A stretch of 64,000 bases of DNA from an uncultured Candidatus Rokubacteria bacterium (GCA_963826115.1 CAWGVS010000006.1:288001-352000); one strand, 5' to 3'. Positions 7,093-11,334 are shown, numbered from the stretch's first letter. The notes: generated from the letters alone by a model not told the origin. Translations and numbers: made by a program.

Positions 7093-7740
7093 TCAGGGGC
7101 GAACGGCGAGGTCGGCGAGGCGCGCGGCGAGATCGTCGCCGCGATCCACGCGGTACACGATGCCCCGCATGCCCAGCGCCTCGGCCGCCCGCACGTTGAC
7201 CTCGGCGTCGTCCACGAAGACGCATGCCTCGGGGGGCACGCCGATGCGCGACGCCGCCCGCCGGTAGATCTCGGCCTCCGGCTTGGCGACGCCTTCCTCG
7301 GCCGACGAGACCACCGTGTCGAAGTGATCGTGGATGCCGAGCTCCCGCAGGCGGCCGCGGAGGCTCTCGTCGGCGTTCGACAGGATCGCCGTCCGGAACG
7401 CCGGCCGCAGGCGCCGCGCCAAGCGCACGTTCGCGTCGATCAGCTGGCGGGCGGCCACCCAGGCATCGTGGAGCCGCGGCAACGGGTGGCCAGCCTGCCG
7501 CTCGAGGAGACGGTGGGCCTCCTCGCGCCAGGCGAGGATGTCGCCGCGCCCGCGCTCGATCCCGCGCCACGTCTCGGTCCGGTACAGGGTCTCGAGGAGG
7601 GCGTGCCGGGGCAGCCCGTGTGCCGTCTCGAGCCCGGCGGACACGTCCCACCGCATGTCGATCAGTACGCCGCCGAAGTCGAAGAGGACGCCGCGGATGG
7701 GCGGGTCTGGCGCCAGGGAAGTTTTGGTCGAGCCGTGCAC
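7093..7740 (-). CDS. HAD-superfamily phosphatase
   Basis: 'LFDFGGV', 'ILSNA', 'VAKPEAEIY', 'FVDDAEVNV'. Confidence 0.88.
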   Translation of the reverse strand: MHGSTKTSLAPDPPIRGVLFDFGGVLIDMRWDVSAGLETAHGLPRHALLETLYRTETWRGIERGRGDILAWREEAHRLLERQAGHPLPRLHDAWVAARQLIDANVRLARRLRPAFRTAILSNADESLRGRLRELGIHDHFDTVVSSAEEGVAKPEAEIYRRAASRIGVPPEACVFVDDAEVNVRAAEALGMRGIVYRVDRGDDLAARLADLAVRP

Positions 7741-7748
7741 GACGCGGT

Positions 7749-7777
7749 ACGCTAGCCCGCGGCGTGGTCGGGGTCAA
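7749..7777 (-). promoter_or_regulatory. sigma70-like promoter of the HAD gene (TTGACC-17-TAGCGT)
   Basis: Minus strand -35 at 7777-7772, -10 at 7754-7749, 8 nt before GTG 7740. Confidence 0.55.
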
Positions 7778-7816
7778 GCGAGCCTCGCGCCACCTCGGAG
7801 CCGCACGACAGGAGCC

Positions 7817-10123
7817 ATGCCGCCAAAGCCGCCGCGCCCGTCCCTCCGTCCGGGTCTCGCTCGCCTCCGCGCCCGCGTCGCGGAGCTCGAGCAGGAGGTC
7901 GCGCGCCGCCAGCGCGAGGCCGCGGCGCTGGCCGTGGAGAACGCGGACCTCGCGCGCCAGACGGCCGAGAAGCTGGACGAGATGGAACGCCTGCTCGGCC
8001 TGAGCCGGGCGCTGACGTCCACCATCGAGCTCGGGCCGCTCATGCGGACCCTGCTCCAGCAGGTGGCGCGGACCGCCGGCGCCGATTCCGCCGGGATGTG
8101 GCTCGCCAACGGCGCCACCGGCGAGCTCGAGCCGTTCGCGGGCTACCACGTTCCCCCGGCCATCCTCGAGCGTCTGCGCGAGCACCGGATCGACCCCGCC
8201 CGGAGCCCGCTCTACGCCGAGGCGATCGCCCGCCGCTCGGTGGTGACCTGGCGGAGCGAGTCCGGGGCGCCGCCGCCCGGCTTCGCCGGCCTGGTCCCGC
8301 ACCGCGCCCAGCTCTTCGCCCCCATCGTCGCCAACGAGCGGCTGATCGGCGCGATCATCGTCGTCTGGTGGGAGCGCCCGTCGACCTGCGGCGACCGGGA
8401 GGCCGGCCTGGTGGACGCGATGGCCAGTCAGGCGGGCATCGCGCTCGAGCACGCGCGTCTGTTCGAGGACGACCGGCGAAAGCTGGCGGAGCTGTCCGCG
8501 CTCCACGAGCTGTCGCGGGCGGTGACCGGTCAGCTGGACACGGCGCAGCTGGTCGAGGCCGTCCATCGCGAGGTGGCGCGGGTGCTGGACGTGCGCAATC
8601 TGGCGATCTTCCTCTACGACCAGGACCGGCGCGAGCTCGAGATCGCGCTGCGGGAGTGGGAGGGCACGCGAGAGGCCGACCTCCCGCGCCGGCGCCCGCT
8701 CGGCGTCGGCCTCGCCACGGCCGTCGTGACGCGGCGGGTCGCGATCCGCACGGCCGACTACGCGGCGACGTGCGCGCGGGAGGGGGTCGCGCCCGTGCCC
8801 GAGGCCCTGCTGATGCCCCACTGGCTCGGGGTGCCGATGATCGCGGGAGACGACGTGCAGGGGGCGCTGACCCTGTCCGCCGCCCGCCCGTTCACCGCGG
8901 CCGACGAGCGCCTGCTGAGCAACATCGCGAGCCTCGCGGCGCTCGCGCTCCGGAGCGCTCGACTCTTCGAGGAGCGCTCGGCCACCTACCGGGAGCTCGC
9001 GCTGGCCCAGGACCACCTGGTCCGCACCGAGAAGCTCCGGGCGCTCGGGGAGATGGCCGCGGGCGTCGCCCACGACTTCAACAACCTCCTCGCCGTCATC
9101 GTCGGGCGCGCCGAGCTCTTGCTCCGCCGCGCCAAGGGGACCGACCTCGCGCGCGGGCTCGAAACGATCCACCAGGCCGCCCTGGACGGCGCCCAGACCG
9201 TGCGGCGCATCCAGGAGTTCACGCGCACGCGCCGCACCCGGCCGTTCCGGCGCGTGGACCTGCTGGACGTCGTGCGCGAGGTCGTGGAGATGACGCGTCC
9301 GCGCTGGAAGGACGAGGCGCAGAGCCGGGGCGTCACGTACGAGGTGGAGATCGAGCATGCCGCGCTCCCGTGGGTCGCCGGGCGCCCCGAGGAGCTGCGC
9401 GAGGTCTTCACCAACCTCCTCACCAACGCGCTCGAGGCGATGCCGCGGGGCGGCCGTCTCGTCTGCGGGCTCGGCGCGGAGGCGGGCGCCGCGGTGGTGA
9501 CGGTGCGCGACACCGGCGTCGGCATGCGACCCGAGACCGCGCGCCGCGTGTTCGAGCCCTTCTTCACGACGAAGGGGCCGCAGGGGAGCGGGCTCGGCCT
9601 CGCCGTCGTCTGGGGCATCGTGACGCGGCACGGCGGCACCGTGGAGGTCGCGAGCCGACCCGGCGAGGGGACCACCTTCACGGTGCGCCTGCCCGGGGCG
9701 CGCGCGGTCGCCGAGCCGCCGGCCGGCGCCGCGCCCGCGCGGCCTGCGCGGCCGGCGCGCGTTCTCGTCGTCGACGACGAGCCCGGCGTGCGCGAGGTGC
9801 TCCGCGAGCTCCTGGGCAGCGAGGGCTACACGGTCGTGGACGCGCCGGACGGGCCCGCGGGCCTTGCGCTCTGCGAGACGGCGCCGGTGGACGTCGTCCT
9901 GAGCGACGTGTCGATGCCCGGCATGTCGGGCTGGGAATTGGCCGAGGCGTGCCACGCCCGTTTCCCGGACGTGCCCGTCGGGCTCATCACGGGCTGGGGC
10001 GATCGTCTCGATCCGGCCGAGCTCGCGCGGCACGGCGTCCGGTTCGTCGTCGCGAAGCCGTTCGAGGCCGCCGAGGTCCTCCATCGGGTCGGTGACGCCC
10101 TCGCGGCTGCCGAGACGGACTGA
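7817..10123 (+). CDS. Cytoplasmic hybrid sensor histidine kinase (2 GAF + HisKA + HATPase + REC)
   Basis: SD AGGAG before ATG 7817; two GAFs ending 'ALEHARLF'/'LRSARLF'; H-box 'GVAHDFNN'; 'FEPFFTTKG..GSGLGL'; receiver 'VLVVDDE...SDVSMPGMSG...KPF'. Confidence 0.93.
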   Translation: MPPKPPRPSLRPGLARLRARVAELEQEVARRQREAAALAVENADLARQTAEKLDEMERLLGLSRALTSTIELGPLMRTLLQQVARTAGADSAGMWLANGATGELEPFAGYHVPPAILERLREHRIDPARSPLYAEAIARRSVVTWRSESGAPPPGFAGLVPHRAQLFAPIVANERLIGAIIVVWWERPSTCGDREAGLVDAMASQAGIALEHARLFEDDRRKLAELSALHELSRAVTGQLDTAQLVEAVHREVARVLDVRNLAIFLYDQDRRELEIALREWEGTREADLPRRRPLGVGLATAVVTRRVAIRTADYAATCAREGVAPVPEALLMPHWLGVPMIAGDDVQGALTLSAARPFTAADERLLSNIASLAALALRSARLFEERSATYRELALAQDHLVRTEKLRALGEMAAGVAHDFNNLLAVIVGRAELLLRRAKGTDLARGLETIHQAALDGAQTVRRIQEFTRTRRTRPFRRVDLLDVVREVVEMTRPRWKDEAQSRGVTYEVEIEHAALPWVAGRPEELREVFTNLLTNALEAMPRGGRLVCGLGAEAGAAVVTVRDTGVGMRPETARRVFEPFFTTKGPQGSGLGLAVVWGIVTRHGGTVEVASRPGEGTTFTVRLPGARAVAEPPAGAAPARPARPARVLVVDDEPGVREVLRELLGSEGYTVVDAPDGPAGLALCETAPVDVVLSDVSMPGMSGWELAEACHARFPDVPVGLITGWGDRLDPAELARHGVRFVVAKPFEAAEVLHRVGDALAAAETD

Positions 10124-10159
10124 CGCCGCCGTCTGAGTGGCGGCGCGGGCCTGCGCCCG

Positions 10160-10188
10160 TTGCGGGGCCTGACGGCCGCCGGTATGAT
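10160..10188 (+). promoter_or_regulatory. sigma70-like promoter TTGCGG-17-TATGAT placing +1 at about the ATG at 10195 (leaderless)
   Basis: -35 at 10160-10165, -10 at 10183-10188, 6 nt to ATG. Confidence 0.65.
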
Positions 10189-10194
10189 GACGTG

Positions 10195-10278
10195 ATGGCA
10201 GGGTTCTACTGTCCGAAGTGCTTCAAGACGGCTCCGGTGCAGAAGATGTGCTGCGGCCGGCCGATGAAGCGCGGCTAG
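10195..10278 (+). CDS. 27-aa Cys-rich microprotein, desulforedoxin/Zn-ribbon-like (MAGFYCPKCFKTAPVQKMCCGRPMKRG)
   Basis: YCxxC-x9-CCGxPM pattern like desulforedoxin; coding-like GC3 (TTC, TAC, AAG, TGC); own promoter; below ORF-track cutoff. Confidence 0.7.
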   Translation: MAGFYCPKCFKTAPVQKMCCGRPMKRG

Positions 10279-10329
10279 CGCCGGCCGGCATGATCGTCTC
10301 GCGCCCCATTCCTTGAGCCTCCCGCCTGC

Positions 10330-11334
10330 ATGACCGCTGCCCCGCCCGACGCGCCGCTCGTCGTCATCTGCGGCCTCGACCACGCCAACATCTCGGAGGA
10401 GCAGGACGTCTTCGCGAAGGCGGGCGTCCGGCACCAGACCGTGGTGGCGCGCACCGAGGCCGAGTACCTCGAGCGGTGCCACGAGGCCGACGGCCTCCTG
10501 ATCCAGTACGGAGACGTCACGCGGCGCATGTTCGAGGGGCTGCCGCGGATCCGCGTGGTCGTCCGCTACGGCGTCGGCGTGGACGGCATCGACCTCGCGG
10601 CGGCGACCGAGCACGGCGTCCCGGTCGTCAACATCCCGGACTACGGGACCGACGAGGTGGCGAACCACGCCGTCGCCCTCCTCCTGGCCCTGGCCCGCAA
10701 GCTCCCCCGGCTCGACCGGCAGACGCGCGCCGGCGCGTGGGACGTGTTCCGGGTCGGCCCCATGACGCGGCTGGCCGGGCAGACCGTGGGCATCATGGGC
10801 TGCGGGCGGATCGGCTCCGCCGTCGCCCGGAAGCTTGGCGGGTTCGACGTGCGGCTTCTCGGCTGCGACCCCTACGTCCAGACCTTTCCGCCCGGCGTCC
10901 AGCCGGTCGCCTTCGAGCGGCTCCTCGCCGAGTCCGACTACGTCACGATTCACTGCCCGCTGACCGAGGAGACCCATCACGCGTTCGACGCCGAATCCCT
11001 CGGCTGGATGCGCCACTCGGCCATGCTCATCAACACGGCGCGCGGCGGGATCGTCGACACCGCCGCCCTCGTCGAGGCGCTCCAGCAGGGATTCCTCGCG
11101 GGGGCGGGGCTCGACGTCCTCGAGCAGGAGCCGATCGATCCGGCCAGCCCGCTCCTCCGGATGGAGCAGGTGATCGTGACCCCGCACGCCGCCTGGTACT
11201 CGGAGGAGGGGCGCTCGGACCTCAAGCGCCGCGCCGCCGAGGAGGCCGTCCGGGTGCTGCGGGGCGAGCGGCCACGGAACTGCGTCAACCCCGAGGTGCT
11301 CGGGCGCATGCGCCGGGCGCCGACGGCCGGTTGA
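10330..11334 (+). CDS. D-2-hydroxyacid dehydrogenase (CtBP-like/SerA-like)
   Basis: 'RYGVGVDGID', 'NIPDYGTDEVA', 'GCGRIG', 'INTARGG', 'TPHAAWYSE'. Confidence 0.9.
   Translation: MTAAPPDAPLVVICGLDHANISEEQDVFAKAGVRHQTVVARTEAEYLERCHEADGLLIQYGDVTRRMFEGLPRIRVVVRYGVGVDGIDLAAATEHGVPVVNIPDYGTDEVANHAVALLLALARKLPRLDRQTRAGAWDVFRVGPMTRLAGQTVGIMGCGRIGSAVARKLGGFDVRLLGCDPYVQTFPPGVQPVAFERLLAESDYVTIHCPLTEETHHAFDAESLGWMRHSAMLINTARGGIVDTAALVEALQQGFLAGAGLDVLEQEPIDPASPLLRMEQVIVTPHAAWYSEEGRSDLKRRAAEEAVRVLRGERPRNCVNPEVLGRMRRAPTAG

Follow-up and report, generated by a model that had tools for sequence, protein, structure and literature searches.

Desulforedoxin, which comes from sulfate reducers, is a 36-amino acid (aa) Fe(Cys)4 protein of Desulfovibrio gigas (PDB entries 1dxg and 1cfw) and, to our knowledge, the example that textbooks usually give of the smallest natural Fe(Cys)4 protein; the N-terminal domain (centre I) of desulfoferrodoxin is represented by PDB entry 1dfx, the Pfam family PF06397 (Desulfoferrod_N) and the model TIGR00319 (desulf_FeS4). 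The canonical desulforedoxin motif is given as CX2CX15CC in PMC3116461, a spacing that is also borne by 10 canonical domains found in the phylum examined here. We analyzed a 64,000-nucleotide (nt) stretch of DNA, hereafter the window, from an uncultured Candidatus Rokubacteria bacterium (GCA_963826115.1, CAWGVS010000006.1:288001-352000), and found in it a micro-gene of 27 codons plus a stop codon. Like desulforedoxin, its product is small and stand-alone, with an aromatic residue before the first Cys, a C-x2-C knuckle, and a CC pair followed by G-x-(P)-M-K, whereas it differs in having a spacer of 9 instead of 15 residues, a length of 27 instead of 36-38 aa, a strongly basic composition, and an origin in Rokubacteria-type soil and groundwater genomes. 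We consider it likely that the locus is best explained as a conserved gene for a short-loop desulforedoxin-like protein of 27 aa, probably read from a leaderless mRNA, whose product acts in trans as a Cys4 metalloprotein.

The element at 10195-10278 is a genuine protein-coding gene under purifying selection. Translation from the ATG at 10195-10197 to the TAG at 10276-10278 yielded exactly the 27 residues that the first-pass annotation had given for this open reading frame (ORF). As the GTG at 10192 is the sole alternative in-frame start after the preceding stop, the product can have at most 28 aa, and a longer ORF was rejected, there being no further in-frame start upstream. The G+C content at codon positions 1, 2 and 3 was 0.44, 0.56 and 0.89, where the third-position value is close to that of five neighbouring genes (0.92-0.96) and unlike those of the shifted frames (0.46 and 0.58). 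A six-frame search with the peptide gave a match in 38 of the 41 genomes, counting that of the window (20/20 in its own family, 16/17 in the sister family), and a profile search of a phylum sample matched 95 of 201 genomes (15/15 in the own family, 77/126 in the sister family, 2/59 in other families); the unpublished genome G038 is counted in both tallies, with none of its sequence used. In all 36 loci that we fetched from relatives, the window's own included, a frame of 27-29 aa was intact, with its start (34 ATG, 2 GTG) and its stop at the equivalent place and with the pattern C-x2-C-x9-CCG-x-PM. Upon scanning public genomes at one genome per species, we obtained 161 candidates and 94 confirmed stretches, of which 80 loci were kept, mostly titled Rokubacteria, Rokuibacteriota or Methylomirabilota, along with one Acidoferrum, one Binatia and several entries named "uncultured bacterium". 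The frame was intact in 80/80 of these, with a length of 27-30 aa across both locus sets, which overlap. Because the frame is intact in every related locus examined, the observation lies far beyond chance.

The pattern of substitution was that of a protein under constraint. The four Cys (C6, C9, C19, C20) were invariant in 32/32 and 33/33 aligned sequences and present in all 36 and all 80 loci, and the synonymous choice between TGT and TGC varied within their codons. Among the 20 loci of the window's family, variable sites in the 23-codon core fell on 9, 7 and 19 of 23 sites at codon positions 1, 2 and 3, and the ratio of nonsynonymous to synonymous differences (pN/pS), summed over pairs, was 0.227 in frame versus 1.30 and 2.63 in the shifted frames, from which 30 and 6 pairs were dropped since their path ran through a stop. 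In distant members, a strong GGAGGTGA-type ribosome site additionally precedes the ATG by 5-8 nt, and in several loci the stop codon of the upstream gene, a thiolase, overlaps or abuts the ATG of the micro-gene. The first-pass annotation had named kept Cys, synonymous-biased changes and a conserved upstream -10 as marks of a real gene; all three were found, and none of the 36 and 80 loci held a frameshifted or stop-broken orthologue. Gene callers elsewhere sometimes get the gene right, as with a 27-aa JGI "hypothetical protein" and entries of 28-30 aa, and often extend family members wrongly at the N terminus; in protein libraries, the members have either no name or that of a hypothetical protein.

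Sequence profiles relate the family to desulforedoxin. A profile search of 1.84 billion representative proteins at a threshold of E <=0.001 returned a wider family of 84 library proteins, which includes correctly called proteins of 28-30 aa as well as many frames wrongly extended at the N terminus, and all aligned single-module members keep C-x2-C-x9-CC. Of 32 members, 26 had PF06397 as their highest-ranking Pfam family (best E 3.2e-4), as did 25 of 36 wider relatives, three of which reached its cut-off (P0002 with 23.0, P0070 with 23.7 and P0045 with 26.6 bits), and TIGR00319 weakly matched 14 of the 32 members (best E 0.0057). Residues C19, C20, G21, P23 and M24 are invariant in the family alignment A1, and this CCGxPM half matches VCCGEPMK of the desulfoferrodoxin 1dfx and CCGQxM of the canonical relatives. 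When we compared A1 with eight canonical desulforedoxin (Dx) domains from the same phylum using hhalign, we obtained a probability of 94.3% and a pairwise E of 9.6e-8 with a single 6-residue gap, and the wider alignment A3 gave 94.8%; the real score was 31.4, and the highest value in each of two sets of 100 shuffles, one of all columns and one that left the Cys columns in place, was 19.6. In profile searches of the PDB, the highest scores went to the repeated "YKCxxCGK" knuckles of C2H2 fingers, and end-to-end matches were obtained only with desulforedoxin 1cfw (E 0.014; profile positions 5-31 aligned to residues 3-35 of the chain) and, at E 0.064, with desulfoferrodoxin 1dfx. The earlier description of the protein as desulforedoxin-like with a 9-residue spacer is thus borne out by the hhalign probability of about 94% across one 6-residue gap and by the rank of PF06397. 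Given the profile similarity together with scores below the cut-off, we regard it as related to desulforedoxin, with a shorter loop, and as lying on the margin of the Pfam model, and, judged by its sequences, the family is best described as a new short-loop form of the known desulforedoxin kind. In the full-text literature outside subscription journals, we found neither a short-loop desulforedoxin nor an account of the family.

Several observations weigh against this relationship and the function that it implies. The window's own protein gave no Pfam or NCBIfam match even at E 10, all 32 members score below the PF06397 gathering cut-off of 23 bits, and relatives reach 13.5-19 bits with TIGR00319, for which the cut-off is 36.05 bits. 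By that family's own criteria, the microprotein family is not a member of PF06397, and a six-frame PF06397 scan of the window's genome yielded nothing over the cut-off. The spacer has 9 residues in every member, which departs from the canonical CX2CX15CC, and, because the six missing residues lie in the canonical hairpin, the protein may depart from desulforedoxin in fold details, in any dimer and in metal geometry. In the window's family, Phe, Leu or Lys takes the place of the Gly that follows the second Cys and that hardly varies elsewhere. Each hhalign E-value refers to one pair of profiles, without database correction, short Cys-rich motifs can converge, and the conservation counts are not independent, since the genomes are kin. 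Nor does the neighbourhood name a function, because the thiolase, dehydrogenase and kinase genes found there need no electron carrier. Structure prediction was equally noncommittal. AlphaFold2, run from the alignment on a 30-residue construct of which the three N-terminal residues are non-native, returned short beta bridges at a mean predicted local distance difference test score of 88.2; Foldseek placed desulforedoxin 1dxg first of 350,542 chains, at a level that is not significant (E 2.7, template modelling score 0.64), and VIA-align gave Z 2.0-2.5 with eL40 tied with 1dxg (Z 2.4 for 1dxg), so that desulforedoxin was inseparable from zinc ribbons. A control with a genuine 38-aa Dx domain attained no better than E 0.009-0.026 against desulfoferrodoxin and desulforedoxin entries, indicating that structure searches are weak at such a size. 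In the ESM Atlas, the 30-aa relative P0015 scored at best 0.85-0.86 (a hypothetical protein and a rubrerythrin rubredoxin-like cluster), below the 0.9 level, and we treat these matches as leads only.

In the proposed mechanism, Cys6, Cys9 and the pair Cys19-Cys20 would hold one metal ion, either Fe or Zn, in a rubredoxin-type Cys4 site, with the hairpin between the two halves shortened by six residues (CX2CX9CC, not CX2CX15CC), and the product would act in trans as a small metalloprotein in electron transfer or in metal or redox handling. By homology, redox-active iron would be the default, and a structural or docking zinc ion the main rival. Two further groups were compared. As in rubredoxin (PF00301), a single metal is predicted, the four Cys come from two short loops, and the first knuckle is of the CxxC(G) type, whereas the second knuckle is CC and not CPxCG and the protein has half the length of rubredoxin; none of the 32 members matched PF00301, and rubredoxin-type models gave weak, partial matches. 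Small zinc-finger and ribbon proteins (archaeal HVO_2753-type proteins, Rpo12, eL40/eL43), which are known as zinc-only proteins, resemble the microprotein in size, in an [FY][KR]CxxCGK knuckle and in their basic character; they have, however, two CxxC knuckles, no match to them covers the CCGxPM half, and the sequence and structure matches were weak.

The rival reading holds that the site is a structural Zn(Cys4) knuckle without a redox role and that the basic 27-mer docks on the thiolase, with which it would usually share a transcript, the hybrid kinase encoded nearby, or RNA or the ribosome. We regard this as unlikely, yet as having a real chance. The fit of the N-terminal half to generic knuckles (C2H2, RNA polymerase subunit P, eL43/eL40) equals or exceeds its fit to desulforedoxin, and the protein is very basic, with six Lys or Arg and no Asp or Glu (net charge +6). 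Coupling to the thiolase is tight and at times overlapping, with the thiolase gene ending <=250 nt upstream on the same strand in 50 of the 80 public loci and most gaps measuring 0-30 nt, and a hybrid kinase homologous to that of the window lies within the locus in 59 of 80 (46 convergent downstream, 13 upstream on the same strand). Set against this, the CCGxPM half belongs specifically to desulforedoxin-type sites, and the alignment runs across the whole domain; moreover, the gene persists without a linked thiolase, the window's own genome having no orthologue, a finding that also ruled out the thiolase as an obligatory partner. Nor was a fusion to a larger domain found: the fusion search (alignment A5) gave six longer matches, of which the three that were read (P0087, P0088 and P0089) proved to be read-through or miscalled frames, one longer match being a thiolase N terminus joined to a remnant and followed by the micro-gene. 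For the short-loop metalloprotein that we favour, we infer the transcription start, translation, metal binding, metal identity and cellular role.

The promoter region of the micro-gene retains a trace of a lost gene. TTGCGG at 10160-10165 is followed by a 17-nt spacer, TATGAT at 10183-10188, the 6 nt GACGTG, and the ATG at 10195, precisely as the first-pass annotation had described it. A generic sigma-70 promoter scan returned 0 sites, missing this one because its -35 matches TTGACA at just 3 of 6 positions, and a generic terminator scan returned none. The pattern GTTGCGG-N15-19-GGTATGATG occurs once in the window versus 0 expected (100 shuffles), and TTGCGG-N16-18-TATGAT has a single occurrence in the whole 6.2-Mb genome. 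The promoter block was found in 14 of 20 family loci, and in four of these (L009, L014-L016), which keep the ancestral order of the window's family (kinase, promoter, thiolase, micro-gene, dehydrogenase), the block occupies the space between the kinase and the thiolase, upstream of the latter, and is followed by a ~40-nt leader containing a GAGGAGG site. The thiolase is missing from the window and from L003, L004, L007, L008 and L013, where the block stands directly before the micro-gene, while in L011, L019 and L021, 10-70 nt of the thiolase 3' end remain between the two. Across eight loci of the window's arrangement, column agreement was 0.90 in the block and 0.93 in the ORF, compared to 0.51-0.73 at the end of the kinase, in the gap and the spacer, and at the start of the dehydrogenase.

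Thiolase remnants were also observed in the sister family, beside an intact micro-gene (L030; library protein P0089), and the window's own genome, which is 99% complete, contained no orthologue of the lost thiolase, the best match being 50% identical. From the remnants and the missing orthologue, we conclude that a gene of 1.2 kb disappeared, probably more than once, and that the 84-nt gene and its promoter were kept; the junctions differ among L001, L011, L019 and L021, and the loss recurs in the sister family. The conserved promoter, originally that of the thiolase, would then drive the micro-gene in this genome, and the deletion would have brought the -10 box to 6 nt from the ATG, which is why the mRNA is probably leaderless. 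Consistent with this, family loci with the -10 box at 6-12 nt from the ATG have no Shine-Dalgarno sequence, including the window-like layouts of L003, L004, L008 and L013 (9-12 nt), and those with the box at >=33 nt possess a GGAGG-type site. Canonical spacing would put the first transcribed base of the window at A10195, so that the earlier placement of the promoter, with a predicted start at about the ATG, agrees with the conserved block. A leaderless micro-gene mRNA is thus plausible on these comparisons, and the transcript is predicted to continue into the dehydrogenase gene.

This layout invites the idea, also raised in the first-pass annotation, of a cis-acting leader peptide or upstream ORF whose translation itself controls the following dehydrogenase, kinase and aminotransferase genes (dehydrogenase-kdgK-ilvE). 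The micro-gene does precede the dehydrogenase start by 51 nt, with both on the same strand, and a dehydrogenase follows directly in 16 of the 80 public loci, all from the window's family. In 46 of 80, however, the downstream neighbour is the convergent kinase, purifying selection on the amino-acid sequence extends over an order-level group, the scan returned nothing resembling a terminator and the region 10195-10335 folds no better than its shuffles (z 0.09), and a paralogue with a strong ribosome site of its own occurs elsewhere in the genome. We therefore abandon this proposal as highly improbable. Still harder to sustain is a DNA or RNA element (promoter, operator or small RNA) or a chance ORF in G+C-rich DNA: 51 ORFs of >=20 aa do occur within 7 kb, and one antisense frame is also open in 20/20 family loci, but the frame has constant ends, most changes fall on third codon positions, the Cys codons encode invariant residues, distant members have ribosome sites, an Rfam search of 9800-10600 (E <=1) gave at best 21.7 bits against a gathering score of 50, a chance-level snoRNA match, and there is no RNA fold signal. 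A precursor of a ribosomally made, modified Cys-rich peptide would suit the small size and the four Cys and is scarcely credible, given that the neighbours examined (thiolase, dehydrogenase, PfkB, aminotransferase, TtuA-like and sensor kinase genes) include no modifying enzyme and that the whole length, without a division into leader and core, aligns with a folded metal-binding domain.

Canonical Dx domains over the Pfam cut-off were found in 11 of 151 genomes of the phylum sample, in the form of desulfoferrodoxins and of 38-aa stand-alone desulforedoxins with CX2CX15CC in other families, and none of these 11 genomes is among the 104 scored genomes of the two short-form families, a complementary distribution that we count in favour of the proposed explanation. 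In another family of the phylum (L133-L141), the 38-aa stand-alone desulforedoxins have an extra Cys in the loop; in four of five flank-scanned loci, the gene has the 3' end of a P-type (E1-E2) ATPase gene on one side and an HtrA-like Trypsin_2/PDZ protease gene on the other, and in the fifth, L138, the upstream gene encodes a FAD-binding oxidoreductase. This context points to metal handling rather than electron transfer for the canonical stand-alone form. The wider short-loop family also contains double modules in tandem (51-71 aa) and triple ones, in some of which His substitutes for one Cys of the CC pair, and single modules preceded by a Cys-rich N terminus of the MC(K/N)CCGCG type (multi-module and Cys-rich N-terminal forms: P0008, P0011, P0023, P0031, P0037, P0040, P0043, P0054, P0055, P0057, P0058, P0062, P0084; P0047, P0052, P0053, P0071).

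The window's own genome encodes, outside the window, a 29-aa paralogue (G000:C10:137006-137077; locus L002 1489-1578; L128) with C-x2-C-x9-CCG-x-PM, a GTG start and a strong GAGGAGGTGA ribosome site. It was located downstream of a gene for an Fe/Mn superoxide dismutase C-terminal domain in 10/10 loci, namely that of the own genome and nine loci from eight genomes of the genus, one of the ten being a divergent pair whose superoxide dismutase-like gene is only 30% identical. This hints at a link of the paralogue branch to oxidative-stress defence. A bolder proposal would be that the micro-gene encodes the smallest natural rubredoxin-type iron protein (27 aa, CX2CX9CC) and founds a "mini-desulforedoxin" family, which takes over from canonical desulforedoxin in bacteria of the Rokubacteria type, is spread more widely in single-module and tandem form, and has specialised paralogues, one tied to acyl-CoA metabolism and a sensor kinase (kept after the thiolase deletion and rewired to a leaderless transcript) and the other to a superoxide dismutase-like gene. 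We offer this composite picture tentatively and hold it to be rather doubtful as a whole.

A conserved 27-residue form with a loop six residues shorter would lower the size limit for an Fe(Cys)4 site and, if the Fe(Cys)4 reading is true, would supply bioinorganic chemists with a natural minimal scaffold. Common gene callers work with a minimum length near 90 nt, and the micro-gene, at 84 nt including its stop, is a clean example of the genes that they tend to skip or wrongly extend. The loss, probably more than once, of the neighbouring 1.2-kb gene with retention of the 84-nt gene and its promoter amounts to a natural "deletion experiment". As Rokubacteria are uncultured, a small metalloprotein found family-wide would also be a useful handle on their physiology.

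Table 1. Coordinates of the micro-gene, its predicted site halves, its promoter region and the adjoining genes in the window.
Feature	Position	Strand	Basis
Micro-gene, 27 codons + TAG, product MAGFYCPKCFKTAPVQKMCCGRPMKRG	10195..10278	+	ORF translation, conservation, selection
First metal-binding knuckle (predicted), Cys6-x2-Cys9, codons 10210-10212 and 10219-10221	10210..10221	+	Invariant alignment columns; aligns with CxxC of canonical desulforedoxin domains
Second half of predicted site, Cys19-Cys20 then Gly21-x-Pro23-Met24 (CCGxPM)	10249..10266	+	Invariant columns
Conserved promoter block GTTGCGG-N17-GGTATGATG, -35-like TTGCGG and -10 TATGAT	10159..10189	+	Conservation in relatives
Junction from thiolase loss: -10 box, 6 nt, ATG, no Shine-Dalgarno; predicted start at or next to A10195	10189..10197	+	Comparison with intact arrangement and remnants
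Hybrid sensor histidine kinase (GAF x2, HisKA, HATPase_c, receiver)	7334..10123	+	Pfam
D-isomer-specific 2-hydroxyacid dehydrogenase, probably same transcript	10330..11334	+	Pfam

Pfam confirmed the flanking genes as the first-pass annotation had called them, a GAF kinase upstream and a dehydrogenase downstream, and beyond the latter lie genes for a PfkB kinase, a class IV aminotransferase and a UvrD/PD-(D/E)XK helicase-nuclease. Neither a thiolase nor a dehydrogenase gene adjoins the micro-gene in 21 of the 80 public loci. A gene for a TtuA-like PP-loop ATPase (ATP_bind_3 plus TtuA LIM domain) was observed upstream in 36 of 80 (L055, L058, L063, L070, L112, L113 and 30 more of L038-L117) and is conserved in the sister family. 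Directly after the kinase stop, in the poorly conserved gap, the window has a G+C stem-loop of 7 to 8 bp at 10124-10145 without a T-run, and the region 10116-10158 around it folds no better than its shuffles (z -1.19). Between the micro-gene and the dehydrogenase, the spacer is variable and shows no obvious Shine-Dalgarno sequence, except for a motif, CTTGAGCC or CCTGAGGC, that stands ~10-20 nt before the dehydrogenase start (10312-10319 in the window) and is kept in L003, L008, L009, L011, L013, L014-L016 and L019.

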